Below, piece by piece: positions 1 through 11,217 of a stretch of DNA of 64,000 bases. The notes beneath the pieces were generated by a model. It had not been told where the DNA came from. It made no database searches and saw only the letters and a program-made list of their open reading frames with translations. Source of the stretch: Candidatus Komeilibacteria bacterium (lineage in GTDB: Bacteria > Patescibacteriota > Patescibacteriia > UBA1558 > 2-01-FULL-52-15); assembly GCA_043801745.1 (NCBI GenBank), contig JAZDLR010000022.1, positions 1,960 to 65,959 on the forward strand. The letters run 5' to 3'. How positions within the stretch are numbered: position 1 is the stretch's first letter; the number at the start of each line of letters is the position of its first letter. Made by a program: the position numbers and the translations under genes.

Positions 1-1475
1 TCAAAAGCTAACTTGTTAAGGATGTTGGTAACTCGGGCGGCGTGTTTCTGAGATACGCAAAAAACTATTGATTTTCCAAATAATGGAACATTTTGTTTCT
101 GCGCAATTGGATCGAAAAGGCCATTATCAATAAACGCCTTACACATGGCAATATTCGTTTCCTCATTGAAAAATTTTCGCTCATAATCACGGCCTTCAAA
201 TACTTCGTCAATAGCTTCACCCTCGTCAGTAGTTTTGTGCACGGCTAATCCTTGCTCGGAGAACAATTGAGTTGTGATCTCAGTTCGAGCATCGACAATA
301 ACCGGATTTACTAAGTAGCCATCTTTGACACCCGCAATTAGATCATAGCGAAATGTCGGCTCACCTGATTCACAGCCAAAGGTTTTATAGGTGCTTAATA
401 AAACCCTACGCTCATACTCTCGTTGTGTGTCAGCCCCTTCAGCATCAAATCCTTTTAGATAATCCTTTGGCGTGGCTGTCAGGCCAAGCTTATATCCAAT
501 AAAATATTCAAAGACCACACGGCTATTACCCCCGATCGAACGATGAGCTTCATCAGAAATAACCAACTCAAAATCTGTTGGCGAAAATTCCTTTCTATAC
601 CTATCACCCGCGAGAAACGTTTGGACGGTCGAAACCACAATACTGGCTGTTTGCCAGGAGTCACGATTATCTTTATAAATGACACAACGAAAATCATGTC
701 CCAGTTGTTGAACAAAGGCCTTGTGTGCCTGATCTTCTAATTCTAGTCGGTCAACTAAAAATAAAACGCGGCGAGCGTTTCCCGTTTTAAGAAATAATTT
801 GATCAACGCCGCCGAAACCAAAGTCTTGCCTGTGCCAGTAGCCATTTCAAAAAGGAATCTCTGATTACCTTGAGCCGCAGATTTCTGCAAACTTTTTATG
901 GCCTTTATCTGATATGGCCTTAGTTGCTTCAAATTATTATTGCGCAAAAACTCTGATCTAGTATTCTCGTCCTGATACGCTGGATCTTTGGCAAAGCTAG
1001 GCATCTGTGAAGCCACAATGTAATTCTCATCAACCTCTGTATCCGCTAACTCATCTGTATTGGGTACATAAGCCTCATATTGTGTTATAGATTCAGGAGT
1101 GGGGAAACGCGATATTACATCTGGGTTGCCACGATTTGTATCCCAAAAATAATGAATATTGCCGTTCGACAATATAATAAATCGAGCGTCGGTATTACGT
1201 GCATAATTTCTGGCTTGCTCTTTAGCAGAAAGTGGATCAACTGATTCTTTTTTTGCTTCGACAACCACTAAGGGTCGCCCATCTTTATCTAATAACAAAA
1301 AATCAATAAAACCGTGTTTCTCATTTTCAAAATCGTCACCTAATTCTGAATACTTAATACCCGGCTCTAACTGAATATTGGCTTTACCTTCTTTACTATC
1401 TTCAAAGCGCCAGCCCGACTCTTCAAGCAACTTATTTATCTTAATACGGGCTTTTGCTTCCTTTGGATTTGGCAT
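1..1475 (-). CDS. HsdR-like restriction R-subunit: N-terminal PD-(D/E)xK nuclease (HsdR_N-like) plus SF2 DEAD/DEAH helicase; C-terminus lies beyond window start (partial)
   Basis: Reverse frame from ATG at 1473-1475 reads MPNPKEAKARIKINKLLEESGWRF.. with GFIDFLLLD..VVVEAKK (nuclease-like), LRPYQIKAIKSL, FEMATGTGKT (Walker A), VISDEAHRS (motif II). No stop before position 1, so it is absent from the supplied ORF track. Hand translation only. Confidence 0.7.
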   Translation of the reverse strand, partial: MPNPKEAKARIKINKLLEESGWRFEDSKEGKANIQLEPGIKYSELGDDFENEKHGFIDFLLLDKDGRPLVVVEAKKESVDPLSAKEQARNYARNTDARFIILSNGNIHYFWDTNRGNPDVISRFPTPESITQYEAYVPNTDELADTEVDENYIVASQMPSFAKDPAYQDENTRSEFLRNNNLKQLRPYQIKAIKSLQKSAAQGNQRFLFEMATGTGKTLVSAALIKLFLKTGNARRVLFLVDRLELEDQAHKAFVQQLGHDFRCVIYKDNRDSWQTASIVVSTVQTFLAGDRYRKEFSPTDFELVISDEAHRSIGGNSRVVFEYFIGYKLGLTATPKDYLKGFDAEGADTQREYERRVLLSTYKTFGCESGEPTFRYDLIAGVKDGYLVNPVIVDARTEITTQLFSEQGLAVHKTTDEGEAIDEVFEGRDYERKFFNEETNIAMCKAFIDNGLFDPIAQKQNVPLFGKSIVFCVSQKHAARVTNILNKLAF

Positions 1476-1499
1476 GTCCCTATTTCATAAATTATTGGC

Positions 1500-1960
1500 C
1501 TAAATCTAGCCAATTTCTGCCCCAATCATCGCATATCCAAGAGGAAAGTTCAAGTTGGGAAGGTCGTGGTGGGCCACCTGCCTGGGTTTGAGGAAAGTGC
1601 GGCTTTCGAGCAAACCCGAAACCCTAAACACGAAACCCTAAAGAAATCCAAAACACCAAACACAAAATCCAAAACTCTTCGCCCAGCACGCCCCGCCAAA
1701 GGCGAGGCTCCGCAAATGCGGGCCGTGGGAGGCGGATCGGCTTTTATTGAATTATAAGGTGGGCGAAAACAAGTTCAAGGAGTAAGTGAAAGTGGGTTGA
1801 TGGGGCGGATGGGAGTAGATGGGGTTGGAGGGGTGATTGAAGATTGGGGCTTGGTCGTCCAGCTGAGCTGGATGAGCTCGATGGGGCTTGGGACTCGGTG
1901 CTGGGGGCTTGCCCGCTCTATTTGACAAACCCTTTTGGGTGGCATAATATATAGCCATAC
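1500..1960. repeat. Mosaic non-coding repeat module A1 upstream of the HsdR-like gene; shares blocks with 2700-3140
   Basis: Shared blocks with copy A2: tctgccccaatcatcgca.. (1516-1556 vs 2711-2751); aaggtgggcgaaaacaagttcaaggagtaagtgaaagtgggttgatggggcggatgggagtagatggggt (1756-1825 vs 2893-2962); ccagctgagct..gatggg.cttgggact (1860-1895 vs 3083-3110). Low-complexity A/C-rich tract 1617-1676. Confidence 0.7.
1517..1556 (-). promoter_or_regulatory. Conserved ~40-nt promoter-proximal element, copy 1 (about 40 nt 5' of the HsdR-like start)
   Basis: Minus-strand aacttgaactttcctcttggatatgcgatgattggggcaga contains TTGAAC then 17 nt then a weak -10-like GATGAT. A near-identical element sits at the same distance upstream of the DUF3800 gene. 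Confidence 0.35.
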
Positions 1961-2022
1961 AAGTAATTCCTCATACGTGGGCTTCCGGATGGTTGCTCAT
2001 AAACAGCGTATGGGGTTTTGTT

Positions 2023-2661
2023 TTAGCCAAAAAGTGAGCGTTCCTCTATAATCAAATCCCGGATAATCGCATAATAACTGTCGTCTCCCCGCTCGTATTT
2101 TCTGAAAACAGCCCAACAGACGAAATCGGCTACCTGCAGACATTTCTCGGCTTCCGGCGTGGCAATAATGACCTTGATGGCGCTTCTATGATTGCGGCTG
2201 ATCTGGCTTCTCAGATAATTCTGGAAATTTTCATTAAAAAATTTATTGGTTTCGCGGCGTGAAGCGATTAATTCTATGGGCTGGCCGCTGGTCACAATAT
2301 TCTGGGAATAAATTCTATCAAGCAGGATATTGGTCACGTAATTATACAGAACCTGTTTCTCGTCACGGAGCTTGGTATAAACCTTGGCTTTATCAAGATA
2401 AATAACCATAACCGAGCATTGATATTTGATTAACCGGCGCAAAACCCTCTTTCTGGTAATTGGCCGCTCCTTTACCGCATGCAAAACGCCCCGCTTTTTT
2501 CCTAAGATGCGGTGCAACTCAAAGCTGGTCTTCTGAATGATTTTCTCAATTGGCCGCTTGGAAGTAGGCACGAACAAAAAGGCAATAACAAAATATCTTG
2601 ATGAACCTTTTTTCTTGGAAAAACCCAAGTCGCCGCTTTCGTCCAGAAAAATATATGCCAT
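2023..2661 (-). CDS. DUF3800-like protein (conserved N-terminal DESG motif)
   Basis: ATG at 2659-2661 gives MAYIFLDESGDLGFSKKKGSSRYFVIAF.., the N-terminal DE motif typical of DUF3800. The track ORF extends to 2808, but that extension crosses a hairpin and the repeat, so the start is trimmed to the first ATG before the DESG motif. Confidence 0.6.
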   Translation of the reverse strand: MAYIFLDESGDLGFSKKKGSSRYFVIAFLFVPTSKRPIEKIIQKTSFELHRILGKKRGVLHAVKERPITRKRVLRRLIKYQCSVMVIYLDKAKVYTKLRDEKQVLYNYVTNILLDRIYSQNIVTSGQPIELIASRRETNKFFNENFQNYLRSQISRNHRSAIKVIIATPEAEKCLQVADFVCWAVFRKYERGDDSYYAIIRDLIIEERSLFG

Positions 2662-2678
2662 ATTTTTTAAATAAAATA

Positions 2679-2698
2679 AAACAGGGGGTTCCCTGTTT
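2679..2698 (-). promoter_or_regulatory. Perfect 8-bp stem-loop AAACAGGG-ggtt-CCCTGTTT, 17 nt upstream of the DUF3800 start
   Basis: Inverted repeat read directly. On the minus strand it is followed by TTTTATTTTATTT then ATG (terminator-like geometry immediately 5' of a start codon). Same motif at 4385-4407. Confidence 0.5.
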
Positions 2699-2699
2699 A

Positions 2700-3140
2700 A
2701 TTGACTTCTTTCTGCCCCAATCATCGCACATCTGAGGGGAATTTTCAAGTTTCTCGCCCGTCTCGCCGCATCGCGGACGAGCGGGCAAGTATCAAGTGCC
2801 TCCGCCAAAGGCGGATCGCCATTTATAGATTTTAAAGGTGGGCGAAAACACGAAACCCTTCGCCCAGAGGGCGATCGCCGTTAATAGATTTTAAAGGTGG
2901 GCGAAAACAAGTTCAAGGAGTAAGTGAAAGTGGGTTGATGGGGCGGATGGGAGTAGATGGGGTGGGAAAGCGACCATTAAGCTAAAGTTCTAAGCTCCCC
3001 GCCCGACTGCGAAGCGCAGCGAGGCGGGCGGGTAAGTTCGAAATCCTAAACAATATCGAAGTTCAAAATTCAAAGTTCAATCCAGCTGAGCTCGATGGGT
3101 CTTGGGACTTGATAGAGCCAGACAGCACCGAGTCTAAATA
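2700..3140. repeat. Mosaic non-coding repeat module A2 upstream of the DUF3800 gene
   Basis: See A1. Contains an internal ~57-bp tandem duplication (gatcgcc.tt.atagattttaaaggtgggcgaaaaca at 2812-2850 and 2869-2907) and a small inversion relative to A1 (actcggtgctg vs cagcaccgagt). Confidence 0.7.
2711..2751 (-). promoter_or_regulatory. Conserved promoter-proximal element, copy 2 (about 50 nt 5' of the DUF3800 start)
   Basis: Minus-strand aacttgaaaattcccctcagatgtgcgatgattggggcaga; about 85% identical to the 1517-1556 element. Confidence 0.35.
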
Positions 3141-3180
3141 AAAACGCCCCGAACAATTTGTTACGAGACGTTCTATTTAT

Positions 3181-3530
3181 TTGTTAACTGATCGCCAAAG
3201 CTTCTTTGATCTTTTGCACCACTACGTGGTCTTGCTCCAGTCGGGAAAGACGCTGTCTTACTTCCTGAAACTCACGCTGCATTTCCACTTTGGTTGGAAC
3301 CAGCTCGAAGCGTTTATATACCTCTTCAAATCGTTTATCCACACCGTCAAAGCCCTGCTTGATCATCAGGGCTAAATCGTCGTTGGTAACGTTATGATAA
3401 ATGTTTGGCTTAGGCATTGGGATAGGTTAAATTATTAAATTCTGGTAGTCACGTCCCCAATGGACGGGTCAAACCATATCCCTGTTTGAGTCATTCTCTC
3501 ACCTCAGAGAAAATTTGGCAACTGTTCATA
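3181..3530. repeat. Duplicated ~350-bp module (small-protein gene plus conserved leader), copy 1
   Basis: About 93% identical by eye to 5219-5570. The leader contains conserved hairpins TCAAAC-agggatatg-GTTTGA and CGTCC-attgg-GGACG on the minus strand. Confidence 0.8.
3184..3417 (-). CDS. Small 77-aa protein of unknown function (copy 1), predicted helical/coiled-coil C-terminus
   Basis: ATG at 3415-3417. MPKPNIYHNVTNDDLALMIKQGFDGVDKRFEEVYKRFELVPTKVEMQREFQEVRQRLSRLEQDHVVVQKIKEALAIS. The second intact copy is at 5222-5455 with 3 substitutions, which supports a real gene. Confidence 0.6.
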   Translation of the reverse strand: MPKPNIYHNVTNDDLALMIKQGFDGVDKRFEEVYKRFELVPTKVEMQREFQEVRQRLSRLEQDHVVVQKIKEALAIS

Positions 3531-3667
3531 AAACAACTGGCTCAGTGGATCGGGCGGGTTACTAATTTGATATATTTGTTCGTCTTGCTATGCTTACTTT
3601 GGCGCTTGGAGGGCTTGGCCCTATCACGGTCAATGTTTTCCAAACCGTAACCAAGTGCCACAAGAAC

Positions 3668-3689
3668 AGCCGAATGTCGGCTTTTTTTG
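3668..3689 (+). terminator. Rho-independent terminator-like hairpin AGCCG-aatgt-CGGCT followed by T7 on the plus strand
   Basis: Read directly. No annotated plus-strand gene upstream. Confidence 0.45.
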
Positions 3690-3707
3690 TTTATCATCAA
3701 ATACCAT

Positions 3708-3735
3708 TTGACAGCCGAAATAGGCATGCTAATAT
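3708..3735 (+). promoter_or_regulatory. Sigma70-like promoter TTGACA-16 nt-TAATAT (plus strand)
   Basis: TTGACA at 3708-3713, TAATAT at 3730-3735. Followed only by a 21-codon ORF (MKKTLIEVSLYRGLFYFLTHH) that includes the next terminator; this reads as sRNA-like. Confidence 0.4.
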
Positions 3736-3755
3736 ATAGTCATTACCATGAAAAA

Positions 3756-3798
3756 GACCCTTATAGAGGTTAGTCTCTATCGGGGGCTTTTTTATTTC
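3756..3798. terminator. Bidirectional intrinsic terminator (stem cccttatagag/ctctatcgggg; T-run on plus, and a T-run on minus after the NYN gene)
   Basis: Stem-loop plus CTTTTTTATTTCTT on the plus strand. The minus strand reads AAAAAAGCCCCCGATAGAG..CTCTATAAGGGTCTTTTT. It lies 73 nt downstream of the NYN stop. Confidence 0.55.
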
Positions 3799-3826
3799 TT
3801 GACACACCATTAGGTTGTGCTATCAT
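3799..3826 (+). promoter_or_regulatory. Sigma70-like promoter TTGACA-16 nt-TATCAT (extended -10 TGcTATCAT) directed antisense into the NYN gene 3' end
   Basis: TTGACA 3799-3804, TATCAT 3821-3826. Confidence 0.4.
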
Positions 3827-3870
3827 ATATATGAATACACATAGAAAGATACCTCTTAACGGTTCCGTCC

Positions 3871-4380
3871 TTAAGCGGTATTTTTCTTTTTATACTCAAG
3901 TTTATTTCGTAAATTATCTATAAAAGCGATCTTTTCTCTGGCTGTCCGCCTAAGCAAAGTCGAGCAAGTTTTGTAGTAAGGACTAAGAACCCGGGCCAAT
4001 TTATCAGCATTATATAGAAATTTGACAACTGAATAAAAGTCACCATCGCTGGTAATTAATATGACTTGATCAAAATTGCCTTCATAGAAATCAGTGATGA
4101 TCTGCAGAACCATGTCAGCATCAACATTCCCCTTATGATTTCCGTCTGGACCGATAATGACTGGCTTAAACTTCAAAATATATCCATCTTGCTGTAAGCG
4201 GGAATACAGATCCTGATTCTCCGGAATGTAACCAAGAAACAAATAGCATATTTTGACACCATATTTTTCCGCCAAATAGACCCGAAATTTTCGATAATCT
4301 AATTTCCAGCCCAGACTCTGGATTCCTAGATTTAGGTTCTGACCGTCAATATAGGCAAAATTATTAGCATTTTTTATCAT
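3871..4380 (-). CDS. NYN-domain (LabA/PIN-like) ribonuclease family protein
   Basis: ATG at 4378-4380. MIKNANNFAYIDGQNLNLG..KGNVDADMVL..ILITSDGDF, which are NYN/LabA-like acidic motifs. The track start at 4476 is a GTG whose extension crosses the hairpin. Confidence 0.65.
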   Translation of the reverse strand: MIKNANNFAYIDGQNLNLGIQSLGWKLDYRKFRVYLAEKYGVKICYLFLGYIPENQDLYSRLQQDGYILKFKPVIIGPDGNHKGNVDADMVLQIITDFYEGNFDQVILITSDGDFYSVVKFLYNADKLARVLSPYYKTCSTLLRRTAREKIAFIDNLRNKLEYKKKNTA

Positions 4381-4384
4381 AATA

Positions 4385-4407
4385 AAACAGGGCTTTCTTC
4401 CCTGTTT
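4385..4407 (-). promoter_or_regulatory. Stem-loop AAACAGGG-ctttctt-CCCTGTTT, 4 nt upstream of the NYN start
   Basis: Same stem sequence as 2679-2698. The left flank is also similar (attttttA..ATAA.A.AAACAGGG). Confidence 0.5.
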
Positions 4408-4481
4408 ATCTGTATCCGCATTATTGCACTTCTCCTCACAATTGGCAATATGTTCCAAAATGGAACCAGCTGCCACTCAAC

Positions 4482-5114
4482 TTAACTATCCGGAATTTCC
4501 GAATAGTTGCATTTTTTGCAACAGTTGAACACGCCGAACTCATCCCAGAGCCTATTATTCCTATCCCGCAGCCAATTTTGGGGATTCTGGCGGATATATT
4601 CCCGGATTTCAATTAGCGCATCTTCATGGCGAATGATGTGATCATAAAAAGACCGATGCCAAGCAAAATCAGGCAGGCCGGATTGATGGATTGATTTGGA
4701 GGAAATGGTTTTGAAGGCGCAGATGATTTTAGATAAAAGCATATGCTGGCGATAGATTTTATATCTTCTGCAGGCTGCGGTACGGACAACCCTAGGGTTG
4801 TCCGTACGAAATCTTTCGGACTGCCCGAAAAAATCATCTGCGCCCTGCCCCCGATCTTTTATAATTATTATTCCATGCACATGATTAGGCATAATAATGA
4901 AAGCATCTAAAGCAATATAGTGCCAGCGCCTAAGCCAAAGCCAGTTCCTCCTGGCAATCCAGCCGTATTTATTTAGCTGCATCCTGCCATTAATGACTTT
5001 ACCGAAGAAATTTTCATAATTAGCAGTATTGATCGTAATAAAATAATAGCCCGGCTGACTGTAATCATAGCCCTTAAGGCGATTGGCTTTTCTCTGGGGT
5101 AAATCAAGATACAT
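4482..5114 (-). CDS. tnpA: IS200/IS605-family (RAYT-like) HUH tyrosine transposase TnpA
   Basis: MYLDLPQRKANRLKGYDYSQPGYYFITINT..PNHVHGIIII (HUH motif), about 210 aa. The C-terminal 8 codons are encoded by a palindrome. Confidence 0.7.
   Translation of the reverse strand: MYLDLPQRKANRLKGYDYSQPGYYFITINTANYENFFGKVINGRMQLNKYGWIARRNWLWLRRWHYIALDAFIIMPNHVHGIIIIKDRGQGADDFFGQSERFRTDNPRVVRTAACRRYKIYRQHMLLSKIICAFKTISSKSIHQSGLPDFAWHRSFYDHIIRHEDALIEIREYIRQNPQNWLRDRNNRLWDEFGVFNCCKKCNYSEIPDS
4484..4508. repeat. Palindromic element AACTATCCGGAATTTCCGAATAGTT (copy 1 of 2; second copy at 9357-9381)
   Basis: Near-identical palindrome AACTATCCGAAATGTCCGGATAGTT at 9357-9381. Confidence 0.6.
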
Positions 5115-5215
5115 AAAAACAAGGATTCTTAGGTCCCTGCTTGCCCCGCCCCGCTCATAAGCGTTTCGCGCATTGAGCGGGCGGTGGTTTTCACCGCCAG
5201 AAAAGCGGCTTGTCT
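4484..5215 (-). mobile_element. Putative IS200/IS605-like element (tnpA only), bounded by subterminal hairpins; limits approximate
   Basis: Palindrome AACTATCCGGAATTTCCGAATAGTT at 4484-4508 overlaps the tnpA 3' end. Upstream hairpins CCCGCTCA..TGAGCGGG (5150-5181) and GGCGGTG-gtttt-CACCGCC (5180-5198). The ~0.7-kb size fits IS200. No TnpB. Confidence 0.35.
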
Positions 5216-5218
5216 AAC

Positions 5219-5570
5219 TTGTTAGCTGATCGCCAAAGCTTCTTTGATCTTTTGCACCACTACGTGGTCTTGCTCCAGGCGGGAAAGACGCTGTCTTACT
5301 TCCTGAAACTCACGCTGCATTTCCACTTTGGTTGGAACTAGCTCGAAGCGCTTGTATACCTCTCCAAATCGCTTATCCACACCGTCAAAGCCCTCCTTAA
5401 TCATAAGGGCTAAATCGTCGTTGGTAACGTTCTGATAAATGTTTGGCTTAGGCATTGGGATAGGTTTTAAATAATTAAATTTCGGCAGACGCGTCCCCAA
5501 TGGACGGATCAAACCATATCCCTGTTTGAACCATTTTCTCACTTCAAAGAAAGTTTGGCAATTGCTAAAT
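5219..5570. repeat. Duplicated ~350-bp module (small-protein gene plus conserved leader), copy 2
   Basis: See 3181-3530. Confidence 0.8.
5222..5455 (-). CDS. Small 77-aa protein of unknown function (copy 2)
   Basis: ATG at 5453-5455. MPKPNIYQNVTNDDLALMIKEGFDGVDKRFGEVYKRFELVPTKVEMQREFQEVRQRLSRLEQDHVVVQKIKEALAIS. The longer track ORF is an upstream extension. Confidence 0.6.
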   Translation of the reverse strand: MPKPNIYQNVTNDDLALMIKEGFDGVDKRFGEVYKRFELVPTKVEMQREFQEVRQRLSRLEQDHVVVQKIKEALAIS

Positions 5571-5578
5571 TACACCCC

Positions 5579-5607
5579 TTGACAAAATGCATATAATATG
5601 ATAATAT
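5579..5607 (+). promoter_or_regulatory. Consensus sigma70 promoter TTGACA-17 nt-TAATAT driving the G+C-rich protease gene
   Basis: TTGACA 5579-5584, TAATAT 5602-5607. The 5'UTR has two hairpins: GCCCAA-tt-TTGGGC, and CCCCC-ata-GGGGG which overlaps the SD AGGGGGG. Confidence 0.55.
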
Positions 5608-5676
5608 ACTATATTACCAGGTTGTTCATTTTTTTGCCCAATTTTGGGCTTTAACCCCCATAGGGGGGTAACAGTC

Positions 5677-6447
5677 GTGAAGCAGATCTGGTCGCGTTTC
5701 TTGGATGTTCTCCTGCTGGTTAGCACGAGCCTTTTTACCTGGTGGGCCATTAGGGCCATCATTACCCCCATGCTGCAGCACAACACACACCTGGCCCACT
5801 GGAACCCCAGTTTCCTGGCAACCATTGTGGTGGTGTCGGTGTTGGGCCATGAACTGGGCCATGCCTTTTTCATGGAACGCTATGGCCTGAGGACGCGGAT
5901 CTTTCTGCTCGTCTTCATTGGCGGCGCGGTCATCGATCCCAAGAAGATGGCCAAACTGTCGTGGAGCAAGCAGAGCAACATCCTGCTCGCAGGAGTTTGT
6001 GTTAACTTCCTGCTGGGTGTGATTGGTCTTCTGCTTGGACTGTTCGGCATCATCACCATCAGCACGGCCAGCATGTTCGCTCTGGTCAACGGAAGCATGA
6101 TCATCTGGAACTTGATACCCGTTGGACTGTTCGACGGAGGTCGCCTCGCCAAACTGCTCTTCAACAGCATTCCGGAACACGATGACCTCCGTGTCGCCCG
6201 GTACCTGAGTCGCGCTGTGCTGCCGGCTTTCATTGGGCTGTTCGCCTGCGCCGTGATCGACATGATCATCCCTATGACACTCATGGTCTGGGGATTTGGC
6301 TATCAGGCCACTCACGATGACCCCGAGGGCAGCTACAACCCTCTGGCCATGACCAGGGAGGACGTGAGCCGGCTGAGCTGGATCTACCTCTTACTGGTCT
6401 ACGGCGGTGCAGCCCTGCTGCTGCTCTTCGAACTGGTCAGGAAGTAA
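5677..6447 (+). CDS. Peptidase M50 / site-2-protease-family membrane zinc metalloprotease (minimal form)
   Basis: GTG start 8 nt after the SD AGGGGGG. HELGHAF (HExxH) in a TM helix and NLIPVGLFDGGR (the LDG motif of S2P). Multi-TM. G+C visibly higher than flanks. Confidence 0.65.
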   Translation: MKQIWSRFLDVLLLVSTSLFTWWAIRAIITPMLQHNTHLAHWNPSFLATIVVVSVLGHELGHAFFMERYGLRTRIFLLVFIGGAVIDPKKMAKLSWSKQSNILLAGVCVNFLLGVIGLLLGLFGIITISTASMFALVNGSMIIWNLIPVGLFDGGRLAKLLFNSIPEHDDLRVARYLSRAVLPAFIGLFACAVIDMIIPMTLMVWGFGYQATHDDPEGSYNPLAMTREDVSRLSWIYLLLVYGGAALLLLFELVRK

Positions 6448-6457
6448 GGCAACTTAG

Positions 6458-6510
6458 GAACCCGCGCTAGTATCATCCTCTGGATGAGAACGCGCGGGTT
6501 CATTTTTTTT
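6458..6510 (+). terminator. Long intrinsic terminator: GAACCCGCGC-tagta-TCATCC-tct-GGATGA-gaac-GCGCGGGTTC then T8
   Basis: 10-bp outer stem, 6-bp inner stem, T-run. Same architecture at 11148-11200. Confidence 0.7.
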
Positions 6511-6533
6511 ATTCAACAACGACTTGCCGACAT

Positions 6534-6857
6534 TTAGTGCGGAAAGCTAAACTCCCCGAGCAAAAACACGACAATAGTTATGAGGTAAATCAAAGCTAAA
6601 ATTTTCGCCACTGACCAGTCTTTATGTTTAATAACCGTATAGATGCCGAAAATTAATGACAGCGGACCGGATAAGGTAAAGATAATTGACAAAATATTAG
6701 CCAATACTTCTAGCCCGAAATTAGCTTCAATCACCTGCAGATTTCCCCTGATGGCCAAGGCAAAAATAAACTCGAAAATTAACGTGGCGGCCAGAGCCAG
6801 AGCGAACCAGATCGCCCACTGACCGGAACGGCTCTGGGGTTTAAAAGACAATTTCAT
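6534..6857 (-). CDS. Small hydrophobic membrane protein (about 3 TM), co-transcribed downstream of the CARDB protein
   Basis: ATG 6855-6857, 6 nt after the CARDB stop. Hydrophobic segments. Confidence 0.45.
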   Translation of the reverse strand: MKLSFKPQSRSGQWAIWFALALAATLIFEFIFALAIRGNLQVIEANFGLEVLANILSIIFTLSGPLSLIFGIYTVIKHKDWSVAKILALIYLITIVVFLLGEFSFPH

Positions 6858-6863
6858 AGTTTA

Positions 6864-9311
6864 TTACAGCTTGGGATAAACGGTGAAACGTTTAGTAGTT
6901 CTCTGAAAACAACTATTAATAAAAGATACTGACAGATTGTAGGAGGAATTTTTGACATCATATTTGTGCGTGGAAGTAAAATTATTACCACTATCTAAGG
7001 CCGGATGAGTATCTACCTGCCCCCAGGCAACGATAATAGGATCAAAGTAACGCGGCCCGGTACAGCCCGGGTAAGTACCCCAATAATCCATATGGCCACT
7101 AACTGTATAGGTTGCTAGACCGTCATTAGTCTCCGTGACTGTAATACTAGGATAACGGTCACCGGTTGGAGTTGTGGGCTCGGGCGTAACTACCGGATTC
7201 ACCGGTGTCACAGGCGGTGTAACCGGAGGCGTAACAACCGGCTCTGGTTCGGGTACGATTATGGTCGGCGGAGTAACTACTGGTACATCTACTTGCGGGA
7301 TTACGGGAATAGTAATATCGGGTACAGGATTAAGCACACCACCCGGAACATCAACACTGGGATTATTGGATCCGGTGTTATTATCGAAAATATAAGACAC
7401 TGGTGGGTGTTCTTGGATAAACTTCACTCTACCGGGTATCGGAGATGCTAAAGAATTATTATTCTCATTGCTTTCCCTAATCTGTGACTGCGGCGCATCG
7501 CCCGTGCCGTCACCCACGTCAACCGTGGCCTTAAATTTGGTGGCATATTTATAGGAATCATTATTACCGCAGAAAACGTCTTTCTGCGTATAGCGCTTAT
7601 TGCGTCCCAGCGTGCCCATAGTTTCATAACATCCGCCCAAACGCTCACCGAAAATGTTATACCAATCATAAGCCACCCGACTGTTTCTACTCGTGCCTTC
7701 CGTACCTTTATTAATAATAGTTACTTCCGGATGCAGATCGCTGCCGCGGAAATTCATGCCTTCAATTTTCAGATCCGGCGCCGGTAGGTCAATCGTTTTC
7801 GAATTATTACTTTCATTAGATTCGTGAACCAAATTTGAAGCCAGAGGTTCATTGGGATCCTCTGACATATCTAAAGTAACGCGCAGTTTGACTGCTTGTT
7901 CAGCAAATTCTGCCGGACAGGCACGGGCCACGGCTGTAGATGTACGACCCACCCCAAGAGATGCGACTCCAGCTCCGGAACCACAAGTATTGATCACACG
8001 ATTGTTGCTGTCCAGCCATTCAGAAACCAAGTTAAACCTCGGCGCTGTATCAGCTCTACCAGAGTTAATGAAATTAACATTACCAATGCGTTCGCCTCGT
8101 TCATTACGGGCCAGAGAAATTGACGTTATCCGCAAATCTGACAAAGGAATGGTCACTGTCTTAGAATTATTACTTTCATTAGACTCGTGAACTAGATTTG
8201 AAGCCAAAGGTTCATTGGGATCCTCTGACATATCTAAAGTAACGCGCAGTTTAACTGCTTGTTCGGCAAATTCAGGCGGACAGGCACGGGCCACGGCTGT
8301 AGATGTACGAGCTACGCCCAGCGGCTCCACACCAGCGCCAGAACCGCAAGTATTGATCACCCGGCCGTTACTTTCTAGCCATTCTGAAACCAAATTAAAT
8401 CTTGGTGAGGTAGAAAATCTGCCGGCATTAATGAAATTAACATTACCAATGCGTTCGCCTCGTTCATTTCGGGCCAGAACAATTGACGTTATCCGCAAAT
8501 CCGGCAAGGGAATACTGACTGTTTTCGAATTATTACTTTCATTGGACTCATGAACCAGATTTGAAGACTCCGGTTCATCCGGGTTCTCAGACCTGTCCAC
8601 AATCACCCGTAACTTAACAGCTTGTTCAGCGAATTCAGCCGGACAGGCACGGGCTACAGCAGTTGAAATCTCACCAAAACCCAAAGATTCTACTGCCGCG
8701 CCAGAACCGCAAGTATTGATCACCCGGCCGTTACTATCTAGCCATTCTGAAACCAGGTTAAAAAATGAAGGCGTAGAACCACGACCGGTGTTTACTATAA
8801 TTACATTACCAATGCGTTCACCCTGACTATTGCGAGCTAAAGTAAGTGAAGATATTTTCAAATCCGGCAAAGGAATGGTCACTGTCTTGGAATTATTACT
8901 TTCATTGGACTCGTGAACCAGATTAGTAGCCAAAGGATCATCGCTCTCATCTTTATCTATCGTCACGCGCAGTTTAACTGCCCGTTCAGCAAATTCAGGC
9001 GGACAGGCCCGAGCCACAGCTGTAGTTACCCTGGCAATACCCAAGGGTTCAACCGCGGCCCCAGAATCACAAGTATTGATCACCTGGCCGTTACTATCTA
9101 ACCACTCCGACATTAAATTAAACCTCGGACCAGTGGCGGCTCGACCGGCATTAATGATTACGACATTACCGATGCGTTCAGCTTGTGAGTTACGGGCAAT
9201 AGTAATGCTAAGAACCTGCAAATCTGGCAAATTTTCTGCTGCCGCCGGCGTCAGATTAGGCACTAATAAAAAAAATACCCAGAGCAGCGCGATTAGAAGT
9301 TTATATTTCAT
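6864..9311 (-). CDS. Secreted cell-surface protein: signal peptide, 5 tandem CARDB-like repeats (~121 aa each, ..NLVHESNESNNSKT..), Pro/Thr/Val-rich linker, C-terminal Cys-containing domain
   Basis: MKYKLLIALLWVFFLLVPNLTPAAA signal peptide. Repeats LPDL.V.SI.IARN..ERIGNV..IN.GR..T.PRFNL.SEWLDSNG.VINTCGSGA.VE.LG...T.TAVARACP.EFAE.AVKLRV. A PVVTPPVTPPVTP linker. Confidence 0.6.
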   Translation of the reverse strand: MKYKLLIALLWVFFLLVPNLTPAAAENLPDLQVLSITIARNSQAERIGNVVIINAGRAATGPRFNLMSEWLDSNGQVINTCDSGAAVEPLGIARVTTAVARACPPEFAERAVKLRVTIDKDESDDPLATNLVHESNESNNSKTVTIPLPDLKISSLTLARNSQGERIGNVIIVNTGRGSTPSFFNLVSEWLDSNGRVINTCGSGAAVESLGFGEISTAVARACPAEFAEQAVKLRVIVDRSENPDEPESSNLVHESNESNNSKTVSIPLPDLRITSIVLARNERGERIGNVNFINAGRFSTSPRFNLVSEWLESNGRVINTCGSGAGVEPLGVARTSTAVARACPPEFAEQAVKLRVTLDMSEDPNEPLASNLVHESNESNNSKTVTIPLSDLRITSISLARNERGERIGNVNFINSGRADTAPRFNLVSEWLDSNNRVINTCGSGAGVASLGVGRTSTAVARACPAEFAEQAVKLRVTLDMSEDPNEPLASNLVHESNESNNSKTIDLPAPDLKIEGMNFRGSDLHPEVTIINKGTEGTSRNSRVAYDWYNIFGERLGGCYETMGTLGRNKRYTQKDVFCGNNDSYKYATKFKATVDVGDGTGDAPQSQIRESNENNNSLASPIPGRVKFIQEHPPVSYIFDNNTGSNNPSVDVPGGVLNPVPDITIPVIPQVDVPVVTPPTIIVPEPEPVVTPPVTPPVTPVNPVVTPEPTTPTGDRYPSITVTETNDGLATYTVSGHMDYWGTYPGCTGPRYFDPIIVAWGQVDTHPALDSGNNFTSTHKYDVKNSSYNLSVSFINSCFQRTTKRFTVYPKL
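7630..9230. repeat. Intragenic tandem DNA repeat, period about 363 bp, about 4.5 copies, roughly 90% inter-copy identity
   Basis: Near-identical antisense ORFs 7852-8190 and 8215-8553 lie 363 bp apart. Repeated ESNESNNSKT-encoding units. Confidence 0.8.
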
Positions 9312-11147: not shown

Positions 11148-11200
11148 GAACCCGCACTAGTATCATCCATCGGATGAGAACGTGCGGGTTCTTCTTTTTT
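11148..11200 (+). terminator. Long intrinsic terminator GAACCCGCAC-tagta-TCATCC-atc-GGATGA-gaac-GTGCGGGTTC then TTCTTTTTT
   Basis: Same design as 6458-6510, with a compensatory G:C to A:T change in the outer stem. Confidence 0.7.
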
Positions 11201-11217
11201 ACAAAAAAATATTACCC

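Follow-up and report, generated by a model that had tools for sequence, protein, structure and literature searches.

The first 5.6 kb of a 64-kb stretch of DNA from Candidatus Komeilibacteria, a lineage of the candidate phyla radiation (CPR), contain a gene of the DUF3800 family and a gene for a NYN-domain nuclease, and past the stop codon of each we found a predicted small RNA (sRNA) gene that converges on it. The whole 64-kb stretch is referred to below as the window. A first-pass annotation made from the letters of the window alone, which had correctly placed the DNA in a CPR-like host, described the spacers between these genes as mere repeat modules with hairpins and missed at least three predicted, promoter-driven sRNA genes convergent on DUF3800 or NYN. 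The novelty of the region is in these spacers, namely a new class of DUF3800-associated RNA, for which the comparative evidence is unusually clean, and the pairing of NYN genes with RNAs. We put at about one in two the probability that the nuclease-RNA pairs are toxin-antitoxin-like or abortive-infection modules, in which the sRNA would restrain the nuclease.

The loci of the 80 closest DUF3800 relatives were compared, and 10 kb on each side was examined for neighbouring genes. These loci came from many CPR lineages and from metagenome-assembled genomes labelled Nitrospirae, Ignavibacteria, Omnitrophota, Bacteroidota and Gammaproteobacteria, and their DUF3800 proteins displayed about 50-64% identity. 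In nearly all 80, the 65-110 nt past the DUF3800 stop codon were 80-92% identical at the DNA level, above the identity of the proteins themselves. A TTGACA and TATAAT pair was kept in the locus alignment on the strand opposite DUF3800 and aimed at the gene, its position being conserved with at least 9 of 12 consensus matches in 54 of 69 loci and a modal spacer of 17, and the same comparison of promoters placed the -10 box 9-10 nt from a conserved AAGUAA. The window copy likewise has its own predicted sigma-70-type promoter and a U-tract (Table 1). Homology among the loci extended from about 10 nt before the DUF3800 ATG to the -35 box of the sRNA, and the conserved unit is therefore the open reading frame (ORF) together with the RNA gene, about 750 bp in length; no conserved promoter or 5' untranslated region (UTR) for DUF3800 was found across the loci. 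From these comparisons, the element past DUF3800 is predicted to be an sRNA gene convergent on DUF3800.

A fold for this RNA was derived from 74 distinct sequences. It has four helices: a closing helix, P0, in which the 5' ACAAG pairs with the 3' U-tract, P1 of 9-10 bp, P2 of 4 bp, and P3 of 2 bp with a loop of 4-5 nt. The conserved single strands are AAGUAAnUCC, the UCCGGAU region and GUAAAUAG, and three sequences have an extra hairpin inserted in the junction. Over a core of 15 pairs, 99.5% of the cells were paired, nine pairs had changed on both sides and 160 cells were compensatory. This level of pairing was never matched by shuffles (0/500), and sliding the partners by 1-3 columns left only 29-50% of cells able to pair. 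RNAalifold independently recovered the core and added a 6-bp P0 with covariation of its own (position 5-89, AU 50, GC 16, GU 7; position 4-90, AU 26, GC 18). Canonical pairs filled 98.1% of cells when read on the plus strand of the window, as against 81.1% on the DUF3800 strand, and the 282 G·U cells therefore identify the plus strand of the window as the transcribed one. The folding energy was -22.4 kcal/mol (z -3.7) for the plus-strand RNA and -11.4 kcal/mol (z -1.3) for the other strand. A possible pseudoknot between the P3 loop (GGAU) and the AUCC before P1 was considered and rejected, as loop variants displayed, by eye, no covariation with the 5' segment.

DUF3800-I and ten further, mutually unrelated RNA motifs have been reported near DUF3800 genes (Weinberg et al. 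2017, PMC5737381); where that report deals with these motifs, it notes terminators in several of them and describes UAA as subjectively common, and its authors give no functional hypothesis there. At least two of the eleven, DUF3800-I (RF02969) and DUF3800-IX (RF02968), are contained in Rfam 15. The sRNA of the window matched no Rfam 15 family at E<=1 over window positions 1-7000 or at E<=10 over positions 1900-2060, the sole result being COG2908 RNA at 11 bits, which was set aside as a chance match. By that covariance-model test the DUF3800 sRNA constitutes a new, twelfth structure class, motifs II-XI being excluded only as far as they are in Rfam.

A covariance model built for the sRNA gave one match in the 64-kb window (84.7 bits, E 2.7e-20), the next best scoring 11 bits. 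In each of the 80 DUF3800 loci it gave exactly one match, a structured RNA supported by covariation, always convergent with the gene and abutting its stop codon, and no extra copies were present in the 1.2 Mb that these loci comprise; what is informative in this 80/80 linkage is that the relation is one-to-one and that extra copies are lacking. The association was also approached from the side of the RNA, by scanning metagenome contigs for a 22-nt degenerate RNA core, which yielded 112 loci with enough flanking sequence. DUF3800 was convergent and adjacent in 87 of them, mostly 28-82 nt from the pattern. Orphan copies were also present, and among the first 80 of these RNA-first loci 17 orphans were genuine RNAs of 44-94 bits (21 sources tested). 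Many orphans keep the last 8-17 codons of DUF3800 (..KIIEENPLFP*), followed by a foreign gene, and in one (L184) an internal deletion has fused LDESGDLGF.. to ..ENPLFP*. Foreign genes found beside orphans included those for a YhcG-type PD-(D/E)xK nuclease, AbiEii-WYL, HepT and ORF6N. In six other cases (L117, L118, L120, L130, L159 and L163) about 13-17 codons are kept and a tyrosine recombinase gene directly follows the remnant, the 3' end of the convergent recombinase gene overlapping it in another frame, which suggests that integrative elements may target the 3' end of the DUF3800-RNA module.

Two real copies of the sRNA were found without DUF3800 on viral contigs. The copy on one phage contig (L087, IMGVR_UViG_3300020576_004502; positions 2259-2328) scored 75.9 bits, has a TTGACA/TAGAAT promoter of its own and lies among genes for an endolysin, a transglycosylase and a Holliday-junction resolvase; it resembles the phage pseudo-antitoxins of type III toxin-antitoxin systems. 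A third viral match of the first scan (L086) was a chance match, and two more viral scans added no further phage-borne copies. Thus, while the protein was never found without the RNA (81/81 loci), the RNA was at times found without the protein, and this asymmetry is what an antitoxin role for the RNA would predict.

The NYN gene presents a similar picture. Scanning of the spacer of 450 bp that separates NYN from the 77-aa gene revealed two plus-strand promoter-plus-terminator units. The RNA of the proximal unit, convergent on NYN and predicted to be antisense to its last six codons or so, has a folding z of -6.1. It was found again past NYN genes that are 66-79% identical, in four other contexts (L217, L219, L229 and L239), and two of its pairs display compensatory change (UA to CG in P1, AU to CG in P2). 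An RNA of the distal type follows a 42%-identical NYN gene in two other loci (L104 and L201), with its inner stem fully exchanged (AUAGAG/CUCUAU as against GCGGGG/CCCCGC), and the distal sRNA of the window is probably an orphan without a cognate gene. The two NYN paralogues of locus L104 are both accompanied by a convergent sRNA, which is of a different type for each. A mechanical test was then applied to 3' ends. To score as positive, the opposite strand had to carry a promoter matching the consensus at 10 or more of 12 positions, together with a hairpin and a U-run whose end fell no more than 45 nt from the stop codon. Of 21 distinct NYN 3' ends 14 were positive, and of 149 DUF3800 ends 56, as compared with 13 of 1500 ends of background ORFs. 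The test errs on the side of caution, since the covariance model detected the RNA at all DUF3800 loci that were searched with it. The literature searched yielded no account of small RNAs linked to NYN, and the NYN-RNA pairing is apparently an undescribed parallel to that of DUF3800.

These sRNAs have in common a predicted sigma-70-type promoter, a leader that is short, conserved and single-stranded, and a closing helix in which an A-rich 5' arm pairs with the terminator U-tract, and they extend up to or across the stop codon of the respective nuclease gene. We propose that the sRNAs would hold their nucleases in check, in the case of DUF3800 most probably by binding the protein; NYN may in addition be restrained by antisense pairing of its sRNA with the 3' end of the mRNA. 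Upon infection, loss or titration of a short-lived RNA would release the nuclease. We infer recognition by the protein because the conservation of sequence and loops goes far beyond what antisense pairing would need. A model of the antitoxin type is favoured because the RNA is present wherever the protein is, while the RNA survives alone, because a phage carries a promoter-equipped copy of it, and because DUF3800 is coupled to another dedicated nucleic acid in type VII retrons.

Several points weigh against this reading. The promoters and RNA ends are predictions, as are the toxicity of DUF3800 and NYN and its neutralisation by the RNAs. The closing helix and its U-tract also look like an ordinary bidirectional terminator. 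The 80 loci represent only the closest DUF3800 relatives, and since 74 of the sequences trained the model, its matches are partly obtained by construction; the NYN RNA alignment consists of five distinct sequences only. Only two viral contigs in 2.9 million carry the sRNA, and these phage copies could equally be attP-type sequences. Finally, part of the orphan class is better explained by integrative elements with the DUF3800 3' end and the RNA gene as their attachment (att) site than by selection for a free antitoxin, because six or more orphans adjoin tyrosine recombinases. More tentatively, and as an extension of the proposal, the DUF3800 and NYN nucleases of the CPR and of other bacteria could belong to a widespread, undescribed class of two-part immune or addiction modules in which the convergent sRNA acts as a protein-binding antitoxin or infection sensor, as a counterpart of retrons devoid of a reverse transcriptase, and in which phages and integrative elements would carry the RNA to disarm or exploit the modules.

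An alternative that we consider unlikely is that the sRNAs are purely cis-acting antisense RNAs of a type I-like kind, which double as bidirectional terminators and target the nuclease mRNA at its 3' end with no binding of protein, duplex formation leading either to RNase III-type decay or to transcriptional interference. The convergent transcription, with RNAs that end at the DUF3800 stop codon or overlap the final NYN codons, would fit such a role, as would the resemblance of the A-rich arm, hairpin and U-tract to bidirectional terminators and the full complementarity that read-through of the nuclease mRNA would have to the RNA. However, antisense pairs co-evolve without a fixed sequence, and yet the DUF3800 RNA is more conserved across phyla than the protein, its loops and junctions are kept and its helices are maintained by covariation, while orphans with intact promoters persist in the absence of a target mRNA.

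The consistent presence of the RNA with the protein fits restraint by the RNA, and fits equally a model in which the RNA is an obligatory cofactor, scaffold or substrate and the ribonucleoprotein is active only with the RNA, which would then not be an inhibitor. The strict gene-RNA linkage and the complex conserved fold are in keeping with this. In addition, DUF3800 is associated with many structured RNAs and with CRISPR loci (PMC5737381, PMC10910872), and its RNase H-like fold is also that of Argonaute/PIWI and of the RuvC domains of guide-dependent nucleases. A nearly invariant RNA sequence, however, rules out a programmable guide, and well-preserved orphan RNAs, including those on phage contigs, are hard to explain if the RNA is useless alone, so that a cofactor role appears doubtful. 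It is highly improbable that the element past DUF3800 is a DNA-level site with no functional RNA, such as an integrase attachment site or a conserved terminator, since, although orphans with a DUF3800 3' end adjoin tyrosine recombinases and structured RNA genes are classic integration targets, att-site use is compatible with, and typical of, real RNA genes, whereas strand-specific G·U pairing and compensatory changes in four helices would be unexpected, and a positionally conserved sigma-70 promoter aimed at the element unneeded, in a DNA site.

With restraint of the nucleases by their sRNAs as the preferred reading of the pairs, the best explanation of window positions 1-5600 as a whole is a small defence islet of independent units in the Candidatus Komeilibacteria chromosome, not one multi-gene system. 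The units are the R-subunit-like gene, DUF3800 with its own 70-nt convergent sRNA, NYN with its own convergent sRNA of about 59 nt, the orphan NYN-type sRNA, the RAYT-like gene and the duplicated 77-aa gene. The five genes had been proposed to form an uncharacterised defence or addiction module, carried on or mobilised by an IS200/RAYT-type element. While a defence islet with addiction-like modules is indeed present, the functional unit and the role of the RAYT-like gene were wrongly assigned. All-against-all clustering of ORFs from the 80 loci identified no conserved protein partner of DUF3800, and apparent clusters of conserved neighbours were spurious ORFs overlapping DUF3800 itself. Within the 10 kb on each side of the 80 homologues, the 77-aa gene was never found, a RAYT-like gene was found once and NYN two or three times. 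In a few other loci (L065, L104, L111, L201 and L038) NYN and DUF3800 are indeed no more than a few kb apart, the five genes of the window form a tight same-strand cluster in which all are annotated as defence-type or mobile-type, and two of them share upstream repeats. Nevertheless, NYN homologues occur in unrelated contexts (peroxiredoxin/MFS, UvrD/YchF and AbiEii), the RAYT-like protein scores under the curated cut-offs and is without flanking or recurring repeats of the repetitive extragenic palindrome (REP) kind, and the neighbourhood analysis largely refutes a single, RAYT-mobilised system, which is thus very improbable. Tandem NYN genes of 125 aa and 174 aa were observed on Candidatus Jacksonbacteria-type contigs (L229-L238).

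The immediate neighbours of DUF3800 in the 80 loci (145 ORFs) were strongly of the defence type and rich in restriction-modification (R-M) genes, the commonest Pfam families being ResIII (nine), N6_Mtase (seven), N6_N4_Mtase (six), HSDR_N and Eco57I (four each) and AbiEii (two), with MmeI, TaqI_C and Methylase_S also represented. As a control, 145 ORFs were taken from the same loci at a distance of 6 kb or more, and these were of the housekeeping type (sigma factors, RecA, signal peptidase). The enrichment expected of a defence-island gene was therefore found for DUF3800. An R-subunit beside DUF3800 is a recurrent neighbourhood, with no fixed partnership.

As called in the first-pass annotation, the ORF list and Pfam placed five minus-strand gene types in positions 1-5600, and Pfam supported the DUF3800, NYN and HSDR_N assignments. 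Entries 100% identical to the encoded proteins are on record for a Candidatus Komeilibacteria metagenome-assembled genome, which makes the host a CPR bacterium. The HsdR-like gene is partial, as it runs off the start of the window. Its translation begins MPNPKEAKARIKINKLLEESGWRF, a D...EAK nuclease motif can be read in it as 'FIDFLLLDKDGRPLVVVEAKK', and Pfam matched ResIII (7.5e-38), HSDR_N_2 (5.5e-10) and HSDR_N (4.2e-08), as well as SWI2_SNF2 and DEAD; both motif and Pfam thus indicate an N-terminal PD-(D/E)xK domain with a ResIII/DEAD motor. The top NCBIfam model was that of the EcoAI-family R subunit (6.3e-55) and the top PADLOC model REase_I (1.2e-51). In agreement with the earlier annotation, Pfam revealed neither a methyltransferase nor a specificity gene beside the R-like gene within the window, the genes next along encoding an M50 peptidase and a CARDB-repeat protein.

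The DUF3800 protein matched PF12686 over its full length (1-149 of 149) at 6.7e-15, with 56.5 bits against a cut-off of 21. The N-terminal DE and C-terminal QxxD motifs that define the family (PMC7736814) are represented by D7 and E8 (FLDESGD) and by Q176 and D179 (LQVADF), all invariant in 18 homologues, and the protein has an RNase H2-like (RNase H-like type 2) fold. The NYN protein matched PF01936 at 8.6e-13 (49.5 bits, cut-off 24.2) and the PADLOC NYN model at 3.7e-08. It belongs to a tight group of 169-aa proteins across the CPR, with 2150 homologues of 62-79% identity, and eight relatives were found on viral contigs.

Table 1. Features of the islet and its spacers, in window coordinates. 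Promoters and RNA ends are predicted.
Feature	Position	Strand	Basis
HsdR-like gene, N-terminal 491 aa (PD-(D/E)xK nuclease and superfamily 2 (SF2) motor)	3-1475	-	Pfam, NCBIfam, PADLOC
43-nt promoter-like box upstream of hsdR, copy 1, TTGAAC-N17-TGcGATGAT then TGGGGCAGAAA	1514-1556	-	
101-nt repeat copy 1, with minus-strand TTGAAC-N16-TATAAT site within	1729-1829	.	Promoter scan
DUF3800 sRNA promoter, TTGACA 1922-1927, 17-nt spacer, TAATAT 1945-1950	1922-1950	+	Scan, 10/12 matches
70-nt structured sRNA, convergent on DUF3800, abutting its stop codon	1956-2025	+	Covariance model, 84.7 bits
DUF3800 gene, 212 aa	2026-2661 (2023-2661 with stop)	-	PF12686
DUF3800 5' region, hairpin AAACAGGGAACCCCCTGTTT (2679-2698) and 43-nt promoter-like box copy 2 (2709-2751)	2679-2751	-	
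46-nt unit twice and 101-nt repeat copy 2, TTGAAC-N17-TAAAAT then palindrome GGCGATCGCC	2805-2967	.	
Duplicated segment copy 1, 77-aa coiled-coil gene (3184-3417; coding 3187-3417), promoter, conserved 5' UTR hairpin	3181-3524	-	
Distal NYN-type sRNA gene, TTGACA 3708-3713, TAATAT 3730-3735, RNA ~3742-3797	3708-3797	+	z -4.3
Proximal NYN sRNA gene, TTGACA 3799-3804, TATCAT 3821-3826, RNA ~3833-3891	3799-3891	+	
NYN (LabA-like) nuclease gene, 169 aa	3874-4380 (3871-4380 with stop)	-	PF01936, PADLOC NYN
RAYT/IS200-like HUH protein gene, 210 aa	4482-5114 (coding 4485-5114)	-	Weakest call
Duplicated segment copy 2, second 77-aa gene (5222-5455; coding 5225-5455), promoter, 5' UTR	5219-5564	-	

The HUH protein had been called an IS200-type TnpA. 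The HUH (HVH) and catalytic Tyr motifs of such a protein are present ('MPNHVHGII' and 'RSFYDHII'), but the Y1_Tnp score of 19.8 bits is under the Pfam cut-off of 23, and the match to the NCBIfam REP-associated tyrosine transposase (RAYT) model (3.4e-13, 49.7 bits) is under its cut-off of 80. Neither REP-like repeats flanking the gene nor a repeated hairpin family was found in the 64 kb, and the only palindrome at the RAYT-like gene is one within the ORF. This is a perfect 28-nt palindrome, GTACGGACAACCCTAGGGTTGTCCGTAC, at 4780-4807, and it sits in a 22-aa in-frame insertion that is absent from a 40%-identical homologue (L055). The RAYT-like protein is probably domesticated.

The 77-aa gene is present in both copies of a 346-bp duplication, which are 92% identical. 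Its family is tiny, with five close relatives; a profile search gave 883 matches that had only generic coiled-coil features in common, none of them with a Pfam family above cut-off. A 70-aa homologue was observed 80 nt upstream of a type II R-M cassette (L001 and L002; Logan SRR8797213 and SRR8797212) comprising a C5 methylase, an LlaMI/MvaI-like endonuclease, a helix-turn-helix controller (C-protein control) and a DpnI-like protein. The promoter and 5' UTR of the gene are conserved among the two window copies (3418-3524 and 5456-5564) and L001 (380-480), with the motif CAAACAGGGAUAUGGUUU kept at 100%, and the hairpin that follows this motif displays compensatory changes between the window and the Logan contigs. 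Hairpins of the AAACAGGG type also lie directly before the start codons of DUF3800 (2679-2698) and NYN (4385-4408).

The repeats that the first-pass annotation had described, as modules of about 500 bp with hairpins, are real as local repeats but narrower than it stated. The regions upstream of hsdR (1476-2022) and DUF3800 (2662-3183) have four elements in common, a 101-nt segment, a 43-nt box, a 46-nt unit in three copies and a 23-nt box. The two 101-nt copies (the second at 2867-2967) are 90% identical. The 43-nt boxes are 86% identical, have the consensus TTGAAm-N17-TGcGATGAT then TGGGGCAGAAA, and lie 40-50 nt before each start codon. None of these repeats occurred elsewhere in the 64-kb window, and a 23-nt core of the 101-nt repeat had no match in 185,579 reference genomes. 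We take the shared upstream elements to represent duplicated promoter or operator DNA; in this reading, regulatory DNA was duplicated locally both in the promoter boxes that hsdR and DUF3800 share and in the 346-bp segment. On the plus strand, the 101-nt repeat contains a G-quadruplex-like run of G-tracts, GGGTTGATGGGGCGGATGGGAGTAGATGGGG (1790-1830 and 2928-2967), which lies just upstream of the minus-strand promoter-like site, and a palindrome, GGCGATCGCC or GGCGGATCGCC, follows the -10 box.

The remainder of the window is ordinary chromosome, with genes for CTP synthase, a MurA-type EPSP-fold enzyme and a CtpA-like protease. The minus strand encodes nearly all genes and GC skew is negative throughout (cumulative to -3.2), consistent with one replichore. 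A 54-nt hairpin with a T-run is repeated at 6458-6511 and 11148-11201 (87% identity, 4.7 kb apart), and its two copies enclose a block with the gene for the CARDB-repeat protein and with a G+C-richer stretch (53% at 10-12 kb). This gene (6864-9311, minus strand) encodes a secreted-looking protein of 815 aa with a CARDB domain and four tandem repeats of 121 aa (363 nt), which are 60-85% identical at the DNA level.

DUF3800 is among the most often noted, yet uncharacterised, domains in prokaryotic immunity. It accompanies Cas12a2, Cas12a3 and Cas13 (CASK) loci (PMC10910872, PMC13594972, 10.64898/2026.08.25.746378) and has been called RNase H-like, and no functional study of it was found in the literature searched. 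A self-contained module of about 750 bp, consisting of a 212-aa protein and a 70-nt RNA with its promoter, makes the question of its function directly testable, and the comparative data alone yield the specific prediction that the sRNA would behave as an antitoxin. If a wider class of such modules with protein-binding or sensor RNAs did exist, the role of the eleven enigmatic DUF3800 RNA motifs would be explained. The NYN parallel suggests a general design that is invisible to protein-only defence finders such as PADLOC, and the modules would add RNA-controlled nucleases to the sparse immune repertoire known for the CPR.

Convergent antisense RNAs that overlap the 3' end of a toxin gene are known from type I toxin-antitoxin systems such as txpA/RatA and bsrG/SR4 of Bacillus subtilis. 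The modules described here are similar to these in being compact, self-contained loci with a convergent sRNA that has its own predicted promoter and runs up to or into the 3' end of the nuclease gene. They differ in that, in place of small membrane peptides, the proteins are RNase H-like and PIN-like enzymes of 169-212 aa, and in that the DUF3800 RNA, its sequence and fold conserved beyond antisense need, has no coding overlap; from the predicted transcript ends, the NYN RNA spans the last six or so codons, while the DUF3800 RNA only abuts the stop. In type III systems (ToxIN, CptIN and TenpIN) an RNA neutralises a nuclease toxin by binding it, infection is aborted, and phages can escape by means of a pseudo-ToxI. 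A protein-binding RNA directed against a nuclease, abortive infection and a phage-carried RNA copy are all features that the proposed mechanism would share. However, the upstream tandem repeat array and the co-transcription of type III systems are absent, the RNA here being single-copy and convergent with its own promoter, and the toxin folds are unrelated to ToxN.

The HsdR-like protein is similar to the R subunit of the EcoAI (IB) family in having an N-terminal PD-(D/E)xK domain followed by a ResIII/DEAD motor; the 491 residues in the window, cut by its edge, score 186.9 bits as against 550 for the equivalog cut-off, and neither hsdM nor hsdS is visible in the window. The effector of type VII retrons is a DUF3800 protein (Mestre et al. 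2020, PMC7736814), and the DUF3800 module has in common with them an RNase H2-like DUF3800 protein, a dedicated structured nucleic acid and a defence context. In contrast to these retrons, the partner is a plain 70-nt RNA, no reverse transcriptase-like ORF was found in the region or as a conserved neighbour in the 80 loci, and the DUF3800 protein keeps the QxxD motif that is missing in the retron-linked clade (PMC7736814). Closest to hand are the motifs DUF3800-I to XI, with which the new RNA has in common that it adjoins DUF3800, has a 3' terminator and carries UAA in both of its conserved junctions. It is set apart from them by its fixed convergent position abutting the stop codon, by a conserved promoter of its own, by its linkage to DUF3800 in 80 of 80 loci, and by the existence of orphan and phage copies.

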